Origin: a virus
Virus record (IMG/VR): IMGVR_UViG_3300012793_000001
Coordinates: 1-42,728 of that record
Reading direction: 5' to 3' (one strand)
Length of the DNA stretch: 42,728 bases
Position numbers and translations under genes: made by a program. Shown here in pieces: positions 11,472 through 42,211 of the stretch. The notes under the pieces are model-generated. The model worked only from the letters and a program-made list of their open reading frames with translations. It did no database searches and was not told the origin of the DNA. The first letter of the stretch is position 1, and every line of letters starts with the position of its first letter.

Positions 11472-11530
11472 CAAACAGAAAATAACCAATAGGTTACGCC
11501 TATTGTAACAAATTCTAGGAGTTGAAGCAA

Positions 11531-12664
11531 TTGGCTAAGAAAGAACAGGATATCCGAATAAAAGAATACGTCAAAAAAAATGGCGAAAAAGCTTATATGT
11601 TTAAGCTGTATCTTGGCATTGATCAAGACACCAAAAAACCAATCCGCACTACAAGACGCGGCTTTAGAACTCAAAGAGAAGCACGTTTAGCAATCGCTGA
11701 TTTAGAACTAAACGGATTATCAAAACCAGAGTCTGAACCACAAATGATTCATACCTATGAACAGATATATAATCTATGGTATGAGGAATACAAAACAACA
11801 GTTAAAGCTTCAACGTTACTAAAAACAGAGCGAGTTTTCAAAAATCATATACTTCCAGCATTTGGTAATAAACCTATACAAGACATCAAACCGATGGATG
11901 CACAGAATCAAATGAATATTTGGCACAAGAAGCTTGTGCGTGCAAGCATGGTTATGAATTATGCTGGATTGGTATTTGATTACGCAATAAGAATGCAATT
12001 GATCAATATGAATCCAACAAAAGTGATTAAGAAGCCTGTAAGGAAGGAATCTGTTAGAGAAGACAAAGATATGAATTTCTATGACAAAGATGAGTTGAAG
12101 AAATTTATGGCAGCTTTAGAAAACAACAACAATTTTAGAGCTTTTGTATATTTTCGTTTGTTAGCATTTACCGGAATGCGCAAAGGAGAATCATTAGCGC
12201 TGAAATGGTCTGATATCGATTTGGAAAAACAAACATTATACATAAACAAGGCTGTTTCGAGAAGTGCAACAGGGCTTTATATTCAAACGCCAAAAACTCC
12301 TTCTTCTATTCGAAGAATCTCAATTGATGACAAAACTGTGTCTATATTACAAGAGTACAAAAAAGAGTCTCCAGATGGTTTAGTCTTTCAAAGTGAAGAT
12401 GGAGGAATATTATCGCCTGCTAAACCGAGAAAATGGTACCTAACTGCCATGAAAAACTTGCCGGATGATTTCAAACAGATATCTATTCATGGCTTTCGTC
12501 ACACACATGCATCATTATTATTTGAAGCCGGTGCTTCTATTAAAGACGTTCAATCAAGGCTTGGTCATTCTGACATCCAAACTACAATGGATGTATATAC
12601 CCACGTATCAAAAACAGCAAAAGAGCAGTTAGCAAATAGGTTTAATAATTACGTTGACTTTTAA
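11531..12664 (+). CDS. int: Tyrosine integrase
   Basis: TGMRKGESLAL (catalytic R), HGFRHTHASLL (HxxR) and LGHSDIQTTMDVYTHV (catalytic Y). Start moved to TTG 11531, 9 nt after AGGAG. Confidence 0.92.
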   Translation: MAKKEQDIRIKEYVKKNGEKAYMFKLYLGIDQDTKKPIRTTRRGFRTQREARLAIADLELNGLSKPESEPQMIHTYEQIYNLWYEEYKTTVKASTLLKTERVFKNHILPAFGNKPIQDIKPMDAQNQMNIWHKKLVRASMVMNYAGLVFDYAIRMQLINMNPTKVIKKPVRKESVREDKDMNFYDKDELKKFMAALENNNNFRAFVYFRLLAFTGMRKGESLALKWSDIDLEKQTLYINKAVSRSATGLYIQTPKTPSSIRRISIDDKTVSILQEYKKESPDGLVFQSEDGGILSPAKPRKWYLTAMKNLPDDFKQISIHGFRHTHASLLFEAGASIKDVQSRLGHSDIQTTMDVYTHVSKTAKEQLANRFNNYVDF

Positions 12665-13011: not shown

Positions 13012-14376
13012 ATGGGAAGTTTTCGATACGAACTTGAGCCCAAACGTGACATTCTTTTTATTGATGTAAAATCATTTTATGCTTCAGTTGAATGTGTTCA
13101 ACGTGGATTTCACCCAATGAAGACCATGTTGGTTGTCATGTCTCAATCTGATAATACAGGAAATGGGTTAGTCTTGGCTGCTTCGCCACTGGCAAAAAAG
13201 AAGTTAGGCATTTCAAATGTTACTCGTGCTGATAATTTACCAAACCATCCTTTATTGTTCAAGGTCCCTCCACGCATGAACTTATATATAAAAGAAAATT
13301 TGAAAGTAAACAACGTATTTAGAAAATATGTAGCCGATGAGGATCTACTCCTCTACTCTATTGATGAATCAATGATGGACGTAACTAAATCACTGAACTT
13401 GTTTGTCCCAGACAAAAGTTTGTCTCGAAGCGAAAGACGATGGCGACTAGCTAAGATGATTCAACGTGATGTCTATGACACGACAAAACTTTATGTGACT
13501 GTTGGTATTGGAGATAATCCTCTTTTGGCCAAACTAGCATTAGACAACGAATCGAAGCATAATAAATCACTTATTGCGGAATGGACCTATCAAGACGTGG
13601 AAAGTAAAGTTTGGAACATCTCTCCTATCACAGAATTTTGGGGCATTGGATCACGCACACAAAAACGACTTGAGCGAATGGGAATAGAAACGATAGAACA
13701 GCTCGCAAAGGCTAACCCCGATTTGTTGCGAAGTAGAATGGGGATCATAGGAGAACAGTTATACCATCATGCGAATGGAATTGATCGGACGATTATTTCT
13801 GAGCCAGCTCCTCAAATCAGAGATAAAAGTTATGGTAATAGCCAGGTACTAAATAGAAACTACTATCTACATGATGAAATAGAAATTGTCATCAAGGAAA
13901 TGGCTGAACAGGTTGCTGCACGTATTCGCAGACATCATTGCCAAACACAATGTATTCATCTTTATATTGGTGTTGCTTTTGGAGAAACACAAAAAGGATT
14001 CTCTAGACAAATGACTGTCCCACCAACAAATAACACAAAAGTATTGGTCTCGCACGCACTGTTCCTATTTCGTAAATATTATACTGGCCAAGTGGTTCGT
14101 CACGTTGGTATCACTTTTTCAAAATTAATTTACACATCAAGTGTTCAGCTTGATTTATTTGCTGATGCTGAGGACCAGATAAAGCAAATAAAACTGGATA
14201 AAATCATCGATAAGATACGTGAGAAGTACGGATTTACTTCTATCGTTCATGCCAACAGCAAGCTCGATGGCGCTCGTGCGATTGCAAGAAGTAAGCTAGT
14301 CGGTGGACACGCTGGTGGTATGGATGGAATATCTGATGAAGGGACTGATAAAAATAAACATCATAAGTCTGTATGA
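13012..14376 (+). CDS. Y-family (UmuC/DinB/UvrX-like) translesion DNA polymerase
   Basis: ILFIDVKSFYASVE, LYSIDESMMDVT and VGIGDNPLLAKLA motifs of the IMS/Y-family palm domain. GGAG RBS. Confidence 0.9.
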   Translation: MGSFRYELEPKRDILFIDVKSFYASVECVQRGFHPMKTMLVVMSQSDNTGNGLVLAASPLAKKKLGISNVTRADNLPNHPLLFKVPPRMNLYIKENLKVNNVFRKYVADEDLLLYSIDESMMDVTKSLNLFVPDKSLSRSERRWRLAKMIQRDVYDTTKLYVTVGIGDNPLLAKLALDNESKHNKSLIAEWTYQDVESKVWNISPITEFWGIGSRTQKRLERMGIETIEQLAKANPDLLRSRMGIIGEQLYHHANGIDRTIISEPAPQIRDKSYGNSQVLNRNYYLHDEIEIVIKEMAEQVAARIRRHHCQTQCIHLYIGVAFGETQKGFSRQMTVPPTNNTKVLVSHALFLFRKYYTGQVVRHVGITFSKLIYTSSVQLDLFADAEDQIKQIKLDKIIDKIREKYGFTSIVHANSKLDGARAIARSKLVGGHAGGMDGISDEGTDKNKHHKSV

Positions 14377-16348: not shown

Positions 16349-17308
16349 TTACCACGGCAACTTATCATTGTTCAATGCTCGTTGCAATGCCTTAACCATA
16401 TCGGATTTTGGACTGATAATACCGTCCACTGTCGTTCCTAATGCTTTTTGCATCGCTTTGATTGTTGCTTCACCAAACAGACCATCAATTGCCCCATTAT
16501 AAAATCCTTTGGCTTTCAATCGTTTTTGCCATGTACGAATAAGATTCGATCCAATCAACGTTTTATCAAACTTCGCTGCATACAGATTCTTGTTACACGC
16601 TTGCCGGTATTGATGACTGATCTCGTCGTCCGGTGTCATTCCTTCGTATTCCATCGCCCGATTAGCTGTTCCTGGACCAAACATCCCATCTTCTTCGATT
16701 CTTGTGTAATTTGGCTTAACTGGTGGTTTTACCGCAGGTGTACTTGGTTTAATCGGTGGCGTGCTTGGTTTTGACGCTGCGCTATTCGTGGCATATCCGA
16801 ATACAGCCAATGCAGCATTAACACCAGCATCCATTTTTTTAGACATGATATCCATATCTTTCTTACTATCCACAAATCCCCATTCAATCAAAATAGCTGA
16901 ACCAGATGATGCCCGGATCACATACAAGGATGTAGTAGCCTTCGCCCCACGATTTACCCATCCAGTAGCCTTACATACTGCAATACAAATCTCCTCTGCT
17001 AATTTTTTAGCTGCTGTATTTCCTGCATAATACCAAACTTCAAAGCCGTTTGCAGTTCCGTTAAATGCATTCAGATGGTGACTAACATGATAACTTTTTC
17101 CTACAGCATTCATTTTACGAACGATATTGTATAGGTTATCATTTACAGTTCTCCCAACGTTATCTGTTGCATCTACTGCTTTGGTTGCAGCACGGAATTT
17201 ATCATGAATTTTCTGAGCAACCTCATGCTCTTTAAGTCCACAACCAGATGCCCCAGGAACGATCGCATTGTGTCCTCGATGTGAGGTAGAATTATAATAT
17301 TTGACCAT
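16349..17308 (-). CDS. Endolysin: N-acetylmuramoyl-L-alanine amidase (Amidase_3-like) with a C-terminal PG_binding_1-like domain
   Basis: SHHLNAFNGTANGFEVWYY and ILIEWGFVD motifs, a P/T/K-rich linker, and the C-terminal GFYNGAIDGLFGEATIKAMQKALG repeat. Confidence 0.9.
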   Translation of the reverse strand: MVKYYNSTSHRGHNAIVPGASGCGLKEHEVAQKIHDKFRAATKAVDATDNVGRTVNDNLYNIVRKMNAVGKSYHVSHHLNAFNGTANGFEVWYYAGNTAAKKLAEEICIAVCKATGWVNRGAKATTSLYVIRASSGSAILIEWGFVDSKKDMDIMSKKMDAGVNAALAVFGYATNSAASKPSTPPIKPSTPAVKPPVKPNYTRIEEDGMFGPGTANRAMEYEGMTPDDEISHQYRQACNKNLYAAKFDKTLIGSNLIRTWQKRLKAKGFYNGAIDGLFGEATIKAMQKALGTTVDGIISPKSDMVKALQRALNNDKLPW

Positions 17309-21229: not shown

Positions 21230-23653
21230 CTAACTATAAGAAAACTCTACGTCTTGCCCAAAGCCATAACGTAGAGCCTTAACTTTTTGACTTTTCGTGT
21301 CAATCAGAAGAACATCCCAACAGTCCTGCTGTAAAGTATCCCAATATTCTATACGTGGGTCAGGATGTGAAAGATTGATTGTAAGATTATTTATATTATT
21401 TACAACTTTCAACCTGTCTGCGTGATGATGTCCGTTCGCAATTAAGGCAACTTTTCTGGTGCCAGTAAAGTTCACATTTACGTCTACTGCAAAATCTTTA
21501 TCGGTATTACTCCCCGAATAACTTGTACCATTTTTATAAGCACCGATAATTCCTTGAACAATTAAAGAGTTGTGTACCCAGTTCGCATTAGAATCATTCC
21601 AACCTGTTCCCATCGAATTGTGTTGAAAGAATGCTACAGTATAATCTTCTGGCGTTTGCTTCAACGAATCAATTAACCAGTTAATTTGTTCTTTCCTGTA
21701 TCCACCGTAATCAATATAGTCCATGGCACCGTTTGTCGCGGTATAGGGATGGTCAAAGCTATTGAGAACAAAGATTCGAAAGTTTTTATCTGGTACATCG
21801 TAGTAGTAGTACATATTTCTATTACTAGGATTTTCTATGATGCCAAAGGCTTTTGATGGACTAGTTATCATCTTATACATTTCATCCGGCTCTATAAATT
21901 GGTTCATCACATTTCCACTCGCTCTGTTCCCGTAACGGTTGTCATCGTGATTTCCAAGAGAAATAAAATAAGGACAATCGACTTGTCCTATTAATGCCAT
22001 GACCTTTTGCAGATCAATTGTATTTTGTTTTTTTGTACTTCTTCCTTCTACCACATCTCCCAAGTGTAACGCAAAGTCACACTGAACCATATTTGTAAAT
22101 TCAACAAAATTCTTGATATGGTCAAAAACTTTCAGATTTCCTCGGATATACTCTTTGTTAATAACATCTACTGCATAATGAGTATCTGTTATCACTGGCA
22201 CCACCAAAGTGTCAGCAGTTCGTTGTTGTTCAACTCGATAAGCCAATGCTTTTAAGCCGTTAATAAAGTAAATAGCTTGAACCCATTGGTTTTTGTGAAT
22301 ATTGACGCTACAAGTAATCATCGCCACTTCTTCAAAGTCAATGTCTGATACACTAACAATATTTCCTACACCATATGCTTTTCCTTCCCAAGCTAGATCA
22401 TGATTACCATTCTTATCCACTTTATACCAAAAGAAATCTAATTTAGATAAGCTATTAGTGATGTCTTCATTTTCTTTGAATACTGTTGCAGTCAAAGAAG
22501 TGGTCTTTGATTCGCCATCAATAAACCCTGTGCCGTTATTTGGCATGATATTCACCGTGTATCTATCTTCTATCTTGCTTAATTGTTTTTGCAGGACTTT
22601 AAGCTGTGCTGATATTCCACTTGATAATGTGACGAAATTTCCAAATACTGCTTTATTCTTAGACGGATCCACACGACTGATCGTTTTTTCTAGAACTCTT
22701 GCTTTTACCCTGATGGCCGGATTATATTCATTGTCTATAATTTTGACATAGTCAAATACTTGGTAGTCATCAATTCCACGAATCACAGATACTTCATAGT
22801 TCACTTTTACTTCATCGTTATCTTTAAGATAAGCCAATCCTTCAGAAAAAATAGTTGACGGAGTGCTACTATCAGATGAGTAGTAGCCCATCACTTTCTT
22901 TCCGCCGCGATCTTTTTTGGCAACTCGATTATAAAGAATATTTGATCCATCAGTTGTATAGTATGTTCCATCGTCATACTTAATTCTTGAAATATCAGCA
23001 CCTGACCCTAGAACCTTTATTTCTGTAAAAGTAGTATAAATATCTGTCGTTCTATGAATCGTTTCAATATCATCACCTGTTCGCAAAACCACACTATTGC
23101 TCAAGTCCGTTCCCCGTTGCTGGTAAATATCTATATAAGCTTTTCTTAGTTTTGCATTATTGAATTCTAGTACAAAGTCTAACTCAGCTTCGAATGTTTC
23201 AGCAATTGAATATAAGCGCGCTTTTTTTGTATCTCCGGTACCACTACAATCTGGAAGCGCCGTTTTATGCGAAAGTTCATTGATTCGAATTTCCCAAACT
23301 GTATTATAGATCTCTCTATTAATGAAATAATCGATTGTTTGGGCTTTATTACTAGGATAGCTGTCAGAAATATCTCCAATCAATGCTACATCAAAGCTCT
23401 CACATTCGATTGTACGGATCGTTTCATCTTCATATGATATATTCATGATCGTAAATAGCAGACTTTTCTTATTTTCATCTACAAAAGCAATCATATTATC
23501 TTCAATAAGATGCTCGCTACCTTCCATTGATTTAAGAATTGTAATAGAGTAAGTGCTTCCTTGCTTGGTGTACCATTGTTCATCCTCTAGCATATCTTCA
23601 TCCAGAAAAGAGGTAAGAGTATTGAAATTTTCATCTATCACTCTAAAATACAT
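21230..23653 (-). CDS. Tail-associated (Tal-like) minor structural protein with a C-terminal calcineurin-type metallophosphoesterase domain
   Basis: Sits after Dit. The C-terminal half carries ITDTHY, HLGDVVEG, LGNHDDN, FFQHNS and NGHHHADR. Confidence 0.8.
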   Translation of the reverse strand: MYFRVIDENFNTLTSFLDEDMLEDEQWYTKQGSTYSITILKSMEGSEHLIEDNMIAFVDENKKSLLFTIMNISYEDETIRTIECESFDVALIGDISDSYPSNKAQTIDYFINREIYNTVWEIRINELSHKTALPDCSGTGDTKKARLYSIAETFEAELDFVLEFNNAKLRKAYIDIYQQRGTDLSNSVVLRTGDDIETIHRTTDIYTTFTEIKVLGSGADISRIKYDDGTYYTTDGSNILYNRVAKKDRGGKKVMGYYSSDSSTPSTIFSEGLAYLKDNDEVKVNYEVSVIRGIDDYQVFDYVKIIDNEYNPAIRVKARVLEKTISRVDPSKNKAVFGNFVTLSSGISAQLKVLQKQLSKIEDRYTVNIMPNNGTGFIDGESKTTSLTATVFKENEDITNSLSKLDFFWYKVDKNGNHDLAWEGKAYGVGNIVSVSDIDFEEVAMITCSVNIHKNQWVQAIYFINGLKALAYRVEQQRTADTLVVPVITDTHYAVDVINKEYIRGNLKVFDHIKNFVEFTNMVQCDFALHLGDVVEGRSTKKQNTIDLQKVMALIGQVDCPYFISLGNHDDNRYGNRASGNVMNQFIEPDEMYKMITSPSKAFGIIENPSNRNMYYYYDVPDKNFRIFVLNSFDHPYTATNGAMDYIDYGGYRKEQINWLIDSLKQTPEDYTVAFFQHNSMGTGWNDSNANWVHNSLIVQGIIGAYKNGTSYSGSNTDKDFAVDVNVNFTGTRKVALIANGHHHADRLKVVNNINNLTINLSHPDPRIEYWDTLQQDCWDVLLIDTKSQKVKALRYGFGQDVEFSYS

Positions 23654-38004: not shown

Positions 38005-38169
38005 ATGGGAGAATTATACAAACCTGGCGAAGACAACAAACCCAAAGGAACTTATAAAGAAGTTGGTCCTCGCGGCGGTAAAGTACCAGGCGGAAGAGAA
38101 GTAAATATCGATCCAGGCGATAGATTACCACCAACTTCTGAAAAAGGGAATAAATGGGAAAAACAATAA
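38005..38169 (+). CDS. YjzC-like small protein, 54 aa (MGELYKPGEDNKPKGTYKEVGPRGGKVPGGREVNIDPGDRLPPTSEKGNKWEKQ)
   Basis: Hand translated. TAGGAGG RBS 7 nt upstream. The GxYxEVGPRGG...LPPT pattern resembles the Bacillus YjzC family. Confidence 0.55.
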   Translation: MGELYKPGEDNKPKGTYKEVGPRGGKVPGGREVNIDPGDRLPPTSEKGNKWEKQ

Positions 38170-38250: not shown

Positions 38251-38299
38251 TGCACCGTTCTTCGCCGGCCCTCCTAAAAACTTTCGACAGTAGGGGGGC
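38251..38299. other. Candidate cos region: a locally GC-rich patch with a 9-bp inverted repeat GCCCTCCTA/TAGGGGGGC
   Basis: Lies between the HNH and terS genes, the usual place for cos in HNH-dependent cos phages. tgcaccgttcttcgccggccctcc stands out in an AT-rich genome. Confidence 0.3.
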
Positions 38300-38325
38300 T
38301 ATTGTTGTTTTATCAAGTTTTCTAG

Positions 38326-38680: not shown

Positions 38681-38902
38681 TCACATTCCATACCTCCTTA
38701 ACCTCTCTGCAATATGCGGATCACTCTTCCAGCCATGCCCGATGTATATCAACCTATGTCGATCGATATACTCGCCACTAAATTGCTGATAGCATTCAAG
38801 CAATGTGTGCTTTGGTTTCAACTCCGCTTGTCGGATGTTCTTATGCCTAAGTATTCCTACTGACAGTTGGATATAATAGTAATATCTCGGCTTAGATGTC
38901 AT
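38681..38902 (-). CDS. Hypothetical protein (73 aa)
   Basis: ORF overlapping the stop of the upstream gene by 11 nt. Confidence 0.5.
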   Translation of the reverse strand: MTSKPRYYYYIQLSVGILRHKNIRQAELKPKHTLLECYQQFSGEYIDRHRLIYIGHGWKSDPHIAERLRRYGM

Positions 38903-40103
38903 ACGTCACCCTCAACCTTTCACTATCATATTCAAACAACTGCAGTACTTTTTTGCCCATCGTCCAACCGTTCTCGATCTCGTAGCTGTCATTCGGCTTA
39001 ATGGTCCCTAACTGACGATGGATCACACCTTGATAGTCGTTCGTCTGCTGCGTGTGGAAATGACCAGTGATTATCTCTCGTGTAGTTGCCTTACTCCATA
39101 TATCGCTAAACTCAGTAGCAAACAGCATAGGTAAATCCTTCCGCTTGCCATACTGCCCATGAGTAATCATGATCGCCACGTTATCCAACATGAACGCTTG
39201 TCGATATTTGTTGTGTGCGTGTACTTGGATGTCCGGATACTTGGCTTCTAGGTATAGGAGAAACATATACTCGATCGATCCGCTATGGTTCCCTTCAGCA
39301 TGTTCAACAGTCACTTGCTTCGAATGTCTCACACACTCAGTAATCAACAGGTCAAAAAAGGAGCGAGCGTCTTTAATCGCTTGCTCCATATCCACATCAT
39401 CTAGTTGTGTGCCAGCCATCGTGACTGACTTCTTGATTTGACTACTATGAAATAAATCTCCTAGCTGACCAATAACAATCTGCTTATAGCCTTTTGAGAT
39501 AACTTCGATCATTCTAGCTAGCTTATCCTTTAGATCCTCTAGCTTAGTAATACCAAAATGCCAATCAGCCAAACCGATGAATAAGTTTCTTTCGCCTGTC
39601 TTGATCGAAGTTAGTTTTACTGGTTCGATTGATTCGTTGAAGGCTGCTAAGTTAAATCCTTTAGGTTTCGGTCTAACAACTATCTTCGACTGATAAAGCT
39701 GTATAAGTCCATCTACTTGGTTGTTCTGTTCCCAGATATTGTTTGTCGCTTGGACCAGTTCCCAATTTTCCGGATCATAGCCGTGCGCTTGTAACACATA
39801 ATTAGGATCTTTTGATTGCTCTTCAGTCATACGTAACTTGATAAGATTTGTTTGCGTGCCGTCTGCTTTGATTTCAGTTGATGCTACATTTTGTTTTAGT
39901 TTATTAGACTTCTTCACGCGCATATTCTTTTCGCTCGGTGGCAACTTCAACCTGGCACGTTTACTCCTAACGCTTGGCCAAGAAAACTCTTTGCCGAATT
40001 CCTCTGATAGCTTAGGCGCTATCTCAATATTAGTTAGTCCTTCATTTGCCAATTCCGACAATCGCTTGACCTGCTGTTCCGTCCATTTAGTAATGATTAC
40101 CAC
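38892..40103 (-). CDS. Metallophosphoesterase (Mre11/SbcD-like calcineurin fold) with an N-terminal HTH-like segment
   Basis: ADWHFG, LGDLFHS, EGNHSG, ITHGQYG and GHFH motifs. The N-terminus WTEQQVKRLSELANEGLTNIEIAPKL looks HTH-like. The start is uncertain (GTG 40103, just after the upstream terminator, is preferred). Confidence 0.7.
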   Translation of the reverse strand: MVIITKWTEQQVKRLSELANEGLTNIEIAPKLSEEFGKEFSWPSVRSKRARLKLPPSEKNMRVKKSNKLKQNVASTEIKADGTQTNLIKLRMTEEQSKDPNYVLQAHGYDPENWELVQATNNIWEQNNQVDGLIQLYQSKIVVRPKPKGFNLAAFNESIEPVKLTSIKTGERNLFIGLADWHFGITKLEDLKDKLARMIEVISKGYKQIVIGQLGDLFHSSQIKKSVTMAGTQLDDVDMEQAIKDARSFFDLLITECVRHSKQVTVEHAEGNHSGSIEYMFLLYLEAKYPDIQVHAHNKYRQAFMLDNVAIMITHGQYGKRKDLPMLFATEFSDIWSKATTREIITGHFHTQQTNDYQGVIHRQLGTIKPNDSYEIENGWTMGKKVLQLFEYDSERLRVTYDI

Positions 40104-40116
40104 CTCGCTTTTCTGC

Positions 40117-40146
40117 AAAATAAAAAGCCACTCGTTATGAGTGACT
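40117..40146 (-). terminator. Intrinsic terminator downstream of the free-standing metallophosphoesterase gene
   Basis: On the minus strand: AGTCACTC-ataac-GAGTGGCT (one G-U pair) followed by TTTTTATTTT. Confidence 0.7.
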
Positions 40147-40231
40147 AGGGTTCTATGTAACAAGTTTTCGCTGACTGGCAGTCGGGATAACTATAAACCC
40201 TAATAACTTTAAACATATACTACTTTAATAG

Positions 40232-41623
40232 TTAGAAACTGATTTCCCTGTCATTTCCAGCTCCAAATCGCGTGAAATAGACTTTTCTTGTATCAAAGTT
40301 AACATTGACAATGTCAAAAGCATCTTCTGTTTTAGACCATAAAGTTCTTAACGGCTTAATATCACTAACAGGTTCACCGCTTTCAGCCAATGAACATAAT
40401 GTCTGAACATAGTTTATTCCATTAACCTTAGCGTTTCGATCATTATGATGGTGACCATTTAGTACACAGATTAATCTATTAAGAGGTTTGCTCTTAAAAT
40501 CATATTCAACGGTAGTTTGGTAGTAATCTGCAGGAAAACGATTATCCAAGTATGTTGTTGTAGCACTTCCTGATGAACTACTTTGAAATGCTTCAAGAAT
40601 ACTCTTTACCACAGATCCATTCATCTGCTCATCTGCTGCCGTTGGATAGATTGTTTTTGCTAAAGATTGATGCATACCAACTATTACATAATAATCATTT
40701 GGTACAGTCTTAAGTGTTTCGATCAAAAATGCTACTTGCTCTTTTCCAAATCCACTTCTTGAACTAATATCAACAGACGCTTTGCCATTATTTACAACAA
40801 GAGGATTATCGAAATTATTCAACATAATTACACGTACTTTTTTATCCGTGAAATCTTTGAAATAATAGTCTTTCTTTCCATCTGGTTTTACAATTCCATA
40901 TTTTAAAAGTGGCTGCATAAACACAGGATAACGTTTCTCAATATCCAGCAAGTCATTTGGATTTAAGCCATTTGCATTAGCATAAATACCATTAATATCA
41001 TGATTTCCCAGTGCAAATAAGGAAGGTACCTCACTTGCAAAAAAGACTTCGAATGCTTCACTAAGTGATCTTAATGTGCCAGTACCATTTTCTGTACCAT
41101 CAACAATATCACCAAGATGAATTCGGCAATCAAGATTTACAAGATTAGTAATTCTATTGACATTTTCCAAATGATTATTTCCATGTAATTTTTCGTTCAC
41201 TCGATTAACAGGTACTCTTTGATAGTGAGAGTCCGTAATATTTACAAAACAAAAGTCTTTATCTGTCATTTTTTTCTTAGCTTTCAAAGCTTTATCCGCA
41301 ATCTCTTCTCGGAAATAATAGTGACCATTATCGGTTACTTCTTGCCATAAAATATAGTTGTCAGTTGAAGCAGGATCTGAATAAGCATTACGTATACCAA
41401 TGAAACTTCTTTTTTGGAAGAAATAATCCATTCGTACTGTTTTTCTCTCACTCCAACCATTAATGATTTCTATACTACACATCCCGGTTAGATTAAACGG
41501 ACGGTTCTTGACTGTATCTGCAATACTACCAGTATAGAATCCAGAGTTTAATTGCAAAATGTCTGTGAAATTACTAGGAAAAGATTTTGGTTGTCCACTT
41601 GCTTGTACTAATTCATATACCAT
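40232..41623 (-). CDS. Free-standing calcineurin-type metallophosphoesterase (463 aa), paralogous to the C-terminal domain of the Tal-like protein
   Basis: ITDSHY, HLGDIVDG, LGNHDING, GMHQS and NGHHHNDR motifs, colinear with the motifs of 21230..22215. AAGGAGTG RBS. Confidence 0.85.
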   Translation of the reverse strand: MVYELVQASGQPKSFPSNFTDILQLNSGFYTGSIADTVKNRPFNLTGMCSIEIINGWSERKTVRMDYFFQKRSFIGIRNAYSDPASTDNYILWQEVTDNGHYYFREEIADKALKAKKKMTDKDFCFVNITDSHYQRVPVNRVNEKLHGNNHLENVNRITNLVNLDCRIHLGDIVDGTENGTGTLRSLSEAFEVFFASEVPSLFALGNHDINGIYANANGLNPNDLLDIEKRYPVFMQPLLKYGIVKPDGKKDYYFKDFTDKKVRVIMLNNFDNPLVVNNGKASVDISSRSGFGKEQVAFLIETLKTVPNDYYVIVGMHQSLAKTIYPTAADEQMNGSVVKSILEAFQSSSSGSATTTYLDNRFPADYYQTTVEYDFKSKPLNRLICVLNGHHHNDRNAKVNGINYVQTLCSLAESGEPVSDIKPLRTLWSKTEDAFDIVNVNFDTRKVYFTRFGAGNDREISF

Positions 41624-41643
41624 GTTCTAATCACTCCTTCACT

Positions 41644-41679
41644 AAAATAAAAAGAAGCGAATCTTAAAGGACTCGCTTC
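41644..41679 (-). terminator. Intrinsic terminator 20 nt upstream of the metallophosphoesterase start codon
   Basis: On the minus strand: GAAGCGAGTC-ctttaa-GATTCGCTTC (10 bp, one G-U pair) followed by TTTTTATTTT. Confidence 0.7.
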
Positions 41680-41797
41680 ACCATATTCATCAGAATAAAG
41701 GTTATAAGAAATATCTATATTATTGATCTTATCCTTTACCTGATAATACTATTTTACCCCTATTGACAGTGAGACAACTATACGTTTTTGTCTCAAT

Positions 41798-42211
41798 TTA
41801 ATTGATTTCACCAATTCTTCTACCAAAATCGAATAATACTTTTTGCCGGATCCGATAGATTGTTGGTTTGCTGTATCCGTGTTTATCTCCGAAAGATTTC
41901 CAATCCATCCAGCTATCTTCACCCCAGTATTTTGTCTCAATCAACTGTCTTATTTCCGCACTTTGATCGCTTAGAGTTTCCTTCACAGCTTTCTTCCACA
42001 ATTCCCGATTCATAATATAAGGATCAGACATTTCCTTGATTACTTGTGACTCAATCGGATTGCTCATAATGTTACTCCGACCTCCACCGATATTTTCATC
42101 GACTTCTCGAAGCTTTAACTCTTCCTTACGAATAGCAATCTCTTTGTTGTATGCTGGATAGTTAGCAAACTTTCTATCCAGCTCATTGATTAATGAATCA
42201 TTCTTTCCCAA
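41798..42211 (-). CDS. arpU: ArpU-family late transcriptional regulator (TTG start)
   Basis: YPAYNKEIAIRKEEL...GGGRSN...ETKYWGED...GYSKPTIYRIRQKVL pattern. AGGAGG lies 9 nt upstream of the TTG. Confidence 0.75.
   Translation of the reverse strand: MGKNDSLINELDRKFANYPAYNKEIAIRKEELKLREVDENIGGGRSNIMSNPIESQVIKEMSDPYIMNRELWKKAVKETLSDQSAEIRQLIETKYWGEDSWMDWKSFGDKHGYSKPTIYRIRQKVLFDFGRRIGEIN

Follow-up and report, generated by a model that had tools for sequence, protein, structure and literature searches.

Introduction

The tail lysins of 506 enterococcal phages and prophages have been assigned to endopeptidase, transglycosylase, NlpC/P60, GDPD and pectinesterase types, and metallophosphoesterases (MPEs) are not listed among them (PMC10194240). 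The baseplate GDPD of Ld17, a phage of Lactobacillus delbrueckii, acts on teichoic acid, as cited in the same paper (PMC10194240). Soluble and virion-bound forms of phage depolymerases have also been shown to coexist (PMC5380687, PMC10131341).

Here we describe a gene for a free-standing MPE of the calcineurin type in a virus genome, IMG/VR virus record IMGVR_UViG_3300012793_000001, which was analysed over its whole length of 42,728 nucleotides (the window). The gene lies at 40232..41623 on the minus strand, starts with ATG and encodes 463 aa (the free MPE), a call based on the open reading frame (ORF) list, the motifs, the profile phrog_7158 and AlphaFold2 (AF2) models. Its ribosome-binding site (RBS), GAAGGAG, was found by inspection at 41634..41640 (minus strand). 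The same phage carries a homologous domain at the C-terminus of its tail-tip protein, Tal. Our best explanation, to which we give a probability of about 0.5, is that the free MPE is an anchor-less fibre-head enzyme, acquired as cargo, which would be expressed late as a soluble phosphodiesterase of wall polymers.

The free-standing metallophosphoesterase

The product can be divided into an N-terminal beta domain (N-dom, residues ~4-98), a linker helix (~103-120) and the MPE domain (~121-463), the last of which is encoded by 40235..41263 (minus strand; residues 121-463) and was delimited with PF00149 and Foldseek. A preliminary description of the window had reported a full calcineurin-type motif set, and all five of the motifs that it quoted were located, with ITDSHY starting at residue 129, HLGDIVDG at 169, LGNHD at 205, GMHQS at 316 and NGHHHNDR at 389. 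No catalytic residue is missing: the seven metal ligands of a binuclear MPE correspond to D131, H133, D172, N207, H318, H391 and H393, and each of the five ligand motifs of PF00149 (D-x-H, G-D, G-N-H-[DE], H, G-H-x-H) is present. The ligand residues are invariant across the 12-14 homologues of alignments A1 and A2, and in a set of 149 sequences their conservation is 90% or higher. The match to Pfam Metallophos (PF00149) as a whole is a marginal pass, at 22.7 bits against a cut-off of 21.5 with only residues 129-232 aligned. The phrog_7158 profile matches residues 118-463 on its positions 216-554 (E 1.1e-46), and the free MPE shares with this family the C-terminal R[FY]G.G ending as well as the motifs.

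The AF2 model of the free MPE has a pLDDT of 65.6 overall, with the catalytic core mostly at 85-97, and it superposes on solved MPEs. Foldseek retrieved 71 PDB chains at E<=1e-3, and 50 of the 50 listed are MPE-type proteins. The top neighbours are the dimetal phosphatase 2nxf, purple acid phosphatases, Rv0805 and GpdQ (E 1e-7 to 1e-10); matches to Mre11/SbcD are weaker (E 1e-5 to 1e-4), and no capping domain was identified. A sequence search of the PDB with the free MPE alone gave a single spurious match (4inn), the corresponding profile search gave generic MPE matches only, and scans against NCBIfam and PADLOC gave no match. By its predicted fold and its active-site residues, the free MPE is an intact calcineurin-type MPE. 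Pfam finds no GDPD domain (PF03009) in it, the fold being that of an MPE instead, and the enzyme may work like GDPD enzymes without being a member of that family.

Nothing in the protein resembles a signal peptide or a transmembrane segment, as the maximum Kyte-Doolittle value over 19 residues is 1.15 and lysine and arginine are absent from the first ten residues. This agrees with the preliminary description, which had noted the absence of a signal peptide. Comparison with Pfam, PHROG and structure-derived sequences found no Prophage_tail, BppU_N or P68-type N-terminus. That the protein is a soluble copy of the tail enzyme, as it had been called, is plausible, a soluble state being what the absent anchor domain would predict.

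Domain origin and the family phrog_7158

The N-terminal domain had been described as a different one, of 115 aa. It is distinct from that of Tal, but it is not an orphan. N-dom (residues 1-98; 41330..41623, minus strand; delimited by iterated hidden Markov model (HMM) searches, alignment A5 and AF2) belongs to a module of ~90-95 aa, and the iterated HMM places one or two copies of it directly upstream of the MPE domain in many long phage proteins, including fibre and appendage proteins. Carriers include P0003, P0004, P0013, P0017, P0020, P0021, P0025, P0029, P0031, P0033, P0036, P0039, P0066 and P0087, among others. In alignment A5 (29 sequences) G28, P42, R60 and W93 are conserved, and the AF2 model built from this alignment has a pLDDT >90 for residues 1-80 and a helix at 105-120. 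Foldseek found no significant match to this model in the PDB; the non-significant hints are to baseplate chains of the staphylococcal phages phi812 and 80alpha (9euf_5, E 0.07; 6v8i_AG, E 1).

The clearest context is that of P0004 (776 aa), which has two copies of N-dom followed by the MPE domain and an N-terminus homologous to the tail-fibre anchor of P68 (6IAB/6IAC; E 2.7e-18). In the phi29-like genome that encodes it, its gene is flanked by those for the collar and the knob, a position that in staphylococcal picoviruses belongs to the receptor-binding appendage (PMC9710869). P0003 and a protein of phage vB_SpsX-DSP1 (L001) share the N-terminal sequence of P0004 in alignment A1, the match to the P68 structure being established for P0004 only. 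A protein of a Staphylococcus pseudintermedius podovirus covers 94% of the free MPE. Because N-dom and the MPE domain are together homologous to these anchored fibres, the free MPE corresponds, as judged by sequence homology, to a fibre or appendage 'head' (N-dom, helix and MPE) without its anchor.

An exhaustive HMMER search with the free MPE returned 2457 representative clusters at E<=1e-3, of which 671 remained at E<=1e-10; P0002 alone among these proteins is more than 50% identical to it. The family statistics that follow rest on the 147 best representatives of this search, and the domain scan on 67 of the best. The 147 have a median length of 659 aa and 22 of them are shorter than 480 aa; for most, among the matches listed, the alignment reaches the end of the protein or comes within ~15 residues of it. 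All 67 scanned representatives match phrog_7158, a family of 'unknown function', and 56 match PF00149. Many of them also match Prophage_tail, BppU_N or tail and virion PHROGs. In GenBank, matching phage genes are annotated as tail, pre-neck appendage, (minor) structural, 'capsid', metallophosphoesterase or hypothetical genes, with one record unannotated, and examples are found in phage ATCCB (in the baseplate module) and in phig1e (gpB). The BFVD entry from Enterococcus phage Idefix is named 'virion protein with calcineurin-like phosphoesterase domain'. The N-termini of some short cellular homologues are of lipoprotein or signal type, which points to an extracytoplasmic substrate. Scans with the free MPE found no match in genome_contigs, and in viral_contigs only the window's own contig; with the short relatives P0020 and P0021 as queries, viral_contigs gave no match.

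Relation to the tail-tip enzyme

Tal (807 aa; 21230..23653, minus strand) comes after the tape-measure and Dit genes. It consists of a Prophage_tail N-terminal domain, an Ig-like region and a C-terminal MPE domain (PF06605, 4e-13; phrog_588; phrog_7158; BLASTP), the last at residues ~462-806 (21233..22270, minus strand; BLASTP). Like the free MPE it is a member of phrog_7158 (E 1e-52). BLASTP aligns residues 103-463 of the free MPE with 462-806 of Tal at E 5e-41, with 28% identity over 367 columns, a similarity far beyond chance. The colinear alignment given in the preliminary description therefore holds as homology, over ~345 aa of Tal rather than its C-terminal 480 aa. The three non-catalytic blocks that were quoted are present, the version from Tal having been put first.

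The two domains had also been called paralogous copies of the same enzyme, and here the closeness was overstated. In the exhaustive HMMER search the cluster representative of Tal, P0027, ranks only ~16th for the free MPE, and in domain-only BLAST searches each of the two ranks ~14th-19th among the matches of the other. Neighbour-joining analysis of 90 MPE domains with 50 bootstraps places Tal in a clade of eight leaves made up of Tal-type fusions of 740-860 aa, from which the free copy is excluded in 49 of 50 bootstraps. The free MPE and P0002 fall in a separate clade of 20 leaves, 15 of which (both counted) carry N-dom, and the smallest clade holding both Tal and the free MPE always has at least 28 leaves. 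These ranks and separate clades argue against a recent duplication of the Tal domain within this genome, and we reject that origin. On the tree and the ranks, the two MPE domains are two separate acquisitions from one family, from different subclades of phrog_7158.

Among GenBank phages, no Enterococcus phage has a tblastn match at E<=1e-5 to either MPE domain. This includes the related phage phiEG37K, so that there are two MPE copies here and none in that relative.

The inserted cassette and its maintenance

Eight related loci were compared with the window, from phage phiEG37K, six IMG/VR contigs and one E. entomosocium contig. In all eight, a 137-aa regulator gene is followed by a leader box and by a terminator (T2, below) directly before a phrog_704 gene, and the MPE gene is absent. 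The leader box TTAGGGTTTATAGTTATCCCGACTGCCAGTCAGCGAAAACTTGTTACATAG (40153..40203, minus strand) is near-identical in the eight relatives and is ancestral. The distance from the regulator stop to this box is 132-153 nt in five relatives, 385-525 nt in three, and 1623 nt in the window. Homology with the relatives breaks at 41739/41740 and at 40203/40204, which indicates that a 1.5-kb cassette has replaced a hairpin element of ~85-100 nt that the relatives have. The cassette (40204..41739, minus strand; junctions placed against L004, L009, L011 and L012) is made up of a leader, the terminator T1, the MPE gene and a 28-nt tail.

The composition of the cassette deviates from its surroundings, with a GC content of 33.7% against 37.6% for the window, and a GC content at third codon positions of 22.4%, the lowest among the genes measured, the others having 27-49%. 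Thus two properties expected of a moron, insertion between conserved genes and deviating composition, are found. As for a promoter and terminator of its own, T2 lies downstream but is ancestral, and the only sigma-70-like site is upstream of T1 and at chance level. Three relatives (L006, L008 and L011) have a non-coding insert of 250-390 nt at the cassette site. The one insert searched with Rfam, that of L011 (L011:580-1100), gave a tRNA match of 36.3 bits over 104 nt and contains two GGTTCGAATCC T-arm-like motifs; ARAGORN called no tRNA in the relatives' inserts. On this comparison, the insertion site looks like a hot spot for cargo.

The only other lineage of the anchor-less form is P0002, which is 77% identical to the free MPE and lies on a bacterial chromosome beside an IS21 element that has removed its first ~9 codons. 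Over 416 codons the dN/dS between the two is 0.088 (dN 0.148; dS 1.69, which is saturated), indicating that the anchor-less form has evolved under purifying selection. The exact protein of the window is also found in genomes of Enterococcus gallinarum (WP_231477763.1 and variants, a 26-member 90% cluster). Apart from fragments, all members of this cluster have 463 aa, and each of the 13 full-length members listed keeps the complete frame.

Terminators and transcription

The preliminary description had placed a terminator on each side of the gene, and both are present. T1 (41644..41679, minus strand), within the cassette, has a 10-bp stem followed by TTTTTATTTT, the hairpin spanning 41654..41679 and the T-run extending to 41644. 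T2 (40117..40146, minus strand) has its hairpin at 40126..40146 and a T-run to ~40117, and is followed immediately by the RBS of the next gene. Their predicted folds have energies of -14.8 kcal/mol (z -4.5) and -10.7 kcal/mol (z -3.2), respectively. Terminator-like sites are not more numerous here than expected by chance (4, against 2.8 after shuffling), and T1 and T2 are supported instead by their placement, their fold z-scores and the conservation of T2 in the eight relatives.

The two terminators do not, however, isolate the gene. T2 is an ancestral part of the late leader, and its hairpin, like the leader box, is found in relatives that have no MPE gene (L004, L009, L011 and L012 for the hairpin). 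Only 3 nt separate the end of the T-run of T1 from the RBS of the MPE gene. A promoter does not fit into this gap, and transcription of the gene must therefore pass through T1. We therefore reject T1 and T2 as the borders of an independent transcription unit; since T2 is ancestral and the gene is read through T1, they bound no insulated unit.

A motif after the regulator gene, GGGGTAAAATAGTATTATCAG (41740..41760, minus strand), is conserved at the corresponding position, upstream of the variable site, in L004, L006, L008, L009, L011 and L012 and is a candidate for the -10 region of a late promoter. Over the region as a whole, promoter-like sites are no more frequent than expected by chance (13 against 15.3, and 9 against 9.2 in a second count), and the only sigma-70-like site, at 41719..41746 with 9 of 12 matches, lies upstream of T1. 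An Rfam scan of the leaders found no known RNA family, and a known riboswitch or attenuator is thus unsupported. In all relatives the motif is separated from the first late gene by T2, an arrangement suggesting that late transcription depends on read-through or antitermination.

An inverted repeat, GAGACAA-N10-TTGTCTC (41771..41794, minus strand), lies directly after the regulator stop, and relatives have one of divergent sequence at the same position. It is followed by the conserved motif GGTAAAATAGTATTATCAG (41740..41760), and the two may be the operator and the -10 region of the late promoter. T1 and T2 share an identical 11-nt tail, CTTTTTATTTT (minus strand; 40117..40127 and 41644..41654), 1527 nt apart. 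A recombination junction at this tail was considered and rejected, as the homology breakpoints are elsewhere, and the identity is probably a convergence of low-complexity sequence.

Genomic setting

The window is a circularly permuted genome of a temperate siphovirus, with an integrase gene at 11522..12664 and an endolysin gene at 16349..17308. In the six loci that show the flanks, the gene order is RinA-like regulator, MPE, phrog_704, HNH, TerS, TerL and portal, to the limits of the contigs. The position of the free MPE gene had been given as between the late regulator and the packaging genes. This is correct on the side of the regulator, a RinA-family late transcriptional regulator of 137 aa (41798..42211, minus strand; TIGR01636, 49.6 bits against a cut-off of 31.9; phrog_36; PF05263 in L014), but the adjoining downstream gene is not a packaging gene, phrog_704 and HNH coming before TerS and TerL. 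At least four mutually dissimilar alleles of the regulator, all of exactly 137 aa, occupy the same slot (window, L004, L007, L010 and L012), and BLASTP detects no similarity between the regulator proteins of the window and phiEG37K.

The first conserved late gene (38892..40103, minus strand; ORF list, PHROG and L014 annotation) encodes a helix-turn-helix (HTH) and MPE-motif protein of phrog_704, 'DNA repair exonuclease' (E 7e-87). Its probable start, in line with the annotation of relatives, is a GTG at 40103, whereas the start of the listed ORF is a TTG at 40163, upstream of T2; the NCBI annotation in L014 gives a product of 403 aa. This is the third MPE-motif protein of the phage (DWH, GDLFH, GNHS and GHFH), with a GcrA-like HTH at its N-terminus, and in 219 phage records such a gene heads the late genes before HNH and terminase. 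No sequence similarity between this product and the free MPE is detectable.

Between HNH and TerS, a 54-aa ORF of the YjzC family (PF14168) lies on the opposite strand at ~38005..38169 (+) and may be a small moron; the ORF call and the Pfam match come from the identical prophage in L014, from which the coordinates were converted. A terminator-like site is found near it at 38285..38307 (+). A 454-aa protein encoded at 13012..14376 (+) matches phrog_1268, 'DNA polymerase' (1e-116), and its position between the integrase and lysis genes is typical of prophage cargo.

Proposed function and alternatives

A 1.5-kb low-GC cassette entered the leader of this temperate siphovirus of E. gallinarum, independently of the MPE fused to Tal. 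In the mechanism that we propose, the gene would be read from the upstream late promoter region through T1, as the first and attenuated late gene, and the late transcripts of all these phages would also read through T2. The free MPE would then accumulate in the cytoplasm late in infection and be released at lysis as free enzyme. Outside the cell, it would hydrolyse phosphodiester links in a wall glycopolymer, either teichoic acid or the teichoic-acid-type decorations of the enterococcal polysaccharide antigen (EPA). In this way it may complement the virion-bound MPE of Tal, either by removing the barrier or receptor of neighbouring cells or through the destruction of receptors on debris. A wall-polymer role is favoured because annotated relatives are virion or extracytoplasmic proteins, and because there are precedents in the fold of GpdQ, in baseplate GDPD enzymes and in depolymerases with soluble and virion-bound forms.

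Several points weigh against this explanation. The full-length AF2 model is of moderate quality (pLDDT 65.6), and the fold leaves the substrate unfixed, as the structural neighbours include the cyclic nucleotide monophosphate (cNMP) phosphodiesterase Rv0805 as well as acid phosphatases. T1, directly upstream, could silence the gene if it is efficient, and the sign of a late promoter is solely the conserved motif. With no signal peptide, the enzyme would reach the wall only after lysis, and N-dom could still attach it non-covalently to the virion. In the literature searched, no paper assigns a substrate to a member of the family or characterises a phage tail metallophosphoesterase.

A more tentative extension, which we consider rather unlikely in full, is a two-enzyme system, in which the MPE of Tal would open the wall at adsorption, the free MPE would destroy receptors or strip the barrier at lysis, and phrog_7158 would be a new class of teichoic-acid/EPA phosphodiesterases. 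If so, the logic would be like that of a neuraminidase, preventing the loss of progeny on debris or preconditioning neighbouring cells, and a widespread class of enzymes would have been missed by surveys of enterococcal tail lysins.

The free MPE could instead be a second virion component, docking non-covalently on the baseplate or fibres and acting in adsorption beside the MPE of Tal. Wherever the context of relatives can be recognised, they are tail, appendage or virion proteins; the gene is oriented in the direction of late transcription, and the only phage-like structural hints for N-dom are staphylococcal baseplate chains. These hints are non-significant, however, the protein has no Tal, BppU_N or P68-type anchor, and its gene, which is not part of the tail module, occupies a site that in the relatives is empty or has a non-coding insert, all of which makes such a role unlikely. 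That the closest relatives are fibre heads with N-dom counts against an intracellular enzyme hydrolysing cyclic (oligo)nucleotide messengers or other nucleotides. A counter-defence role of this kind had been listed in the preliminary description, and no specific support for it was found. The lack of a signal peptide would suit it, as would the presence of the cNMP phosphodiesterase Rv0805 among the structural neighbours, but the same neighbours are found for the domain of Tal, which acts outside the cell. Furthermore, the gene heads the late genes rather than being among the early genes, and there is no CpdA-type match in NCBIfam and no match in PADLOC. Known anti-CBASS and anti-Pycsar nucleases (Acb1 and Apyc1) have 2H-phosphoesterase or metallo-beta-lactamase folds, unlike the calcineurin-type fold of the free MPE, and we regard this role as very improbable.

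The cargo-like insertion, foreign composition and flanking terminators, together with the stable retention of the gene in many E. gallinarum genomes, would also fit a lysogenic-conversion (moron) enzyme, trimming lipid-linked precursors of teichoic acid or EPA on the cytoplasmic face and so altering the receptor and excluding other phages. This is improbable, as the stretch from T1 to the RBS has no detectable promoter, the promoter-like sites of the region are not above chance, and T1 would block read-in from the upstream operon. The same terminator, strong and directly before the gene, the missing anchor and the truncation of P0002, the only other lineage, by IS21 at its 5' end could be taken as signs of a decaying, functionless remnant of a fibre gene. 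A dN/dS of 0.088 over 416 codons, intact ligands throughout, a good RBS and the full-length frame in the 13 listed full-length cluster members make decay extremely unlikely.

Tail proteins of phages that infect Gram-positive bacteria often carry the MPE module, which forms hundreds of clusters at 50% identity, and the anchor-less single-gene form should express in soluble form, offering a convenient entry to the polymer specificity of the family. It also allows a test of whether phages of Gram-positive bacteria use free enzymes that degrade receptors or barriers, as capsule-targeting phages do. Enterococcal walls and biofilms could be attacked with the free MPE as a tool, should it prove to degrade teichoic acid or EPA decorations. 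In addition, a cargo hot spot in a terminator-containing leader downstream of RinA-type regulators bears on the control of late transcription.

Comparison with known systems

The fold and the ligand set of the free MPE are those of GpdQ from Enterobacter aerogenes, Rv0805 and purple acid phosphatases (TM 0.6-0.7 on the target). Identity to these enzymes is 13-17%, and the free MPE differs from them in having N-dom, long inserts and a phage fibre context. The NCBIfam equivalog for class III cNMP phosphodiesterases (CpdA/Rv0805) does not match the free MPE, and scores 16 bits against a cut-off of 225 with Tal.

The function proposed for the free MPE, the cutting of phosphodiester bonds in teichoic-acid-type polymers by a phage enzyme, parallels that of the Ld17 GDPD and of the tail lysins of GDPD type in enterococcal phages (PMC10194240). 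The folds are unrelated, being a GDPD TIM barrel in one case and the binuclear MPE sandwich in the other. Soluble depolymerases present another likeness, with one activity both on the virion and as a free protein released at lysis (PMC5380687, PMC10131341). For the TP-84 depolymerase, the free and bound forms are reported to stem from one gene (PMC10131341), whereas here the free form would come from a separate and divergent gene. Soluble polysaccharide depolymerases cleave glycosidic bonds, and the chemistry of the free MPE would be that of a phosphodiesterase.

The family phrog_7158 is the same MPE module, found at the C-terminus of tail, Tal, BppU-like and appendage proteins in phages of Gram-positive hosts, whereas the free MPE is a separate gene, placed in the leader of the late operon instead of the tail module, and has no virion anchor. 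The P68 gp17-type fibres with two copies of N-dom and an MPE domain (P0004, P0003 and vB_SpsX-DSP1) are homologous over 94-98% of the free MPE, at ~30% identity, but have a P68-type anchor and a coiled coil (tested for P0004) and two copies of N-dom where the free MPE has one. The free MPE is a tail-fibre enzyme module in stand-alone form, without an anchor, and belongs to a class of MPE that is uncharacterised.

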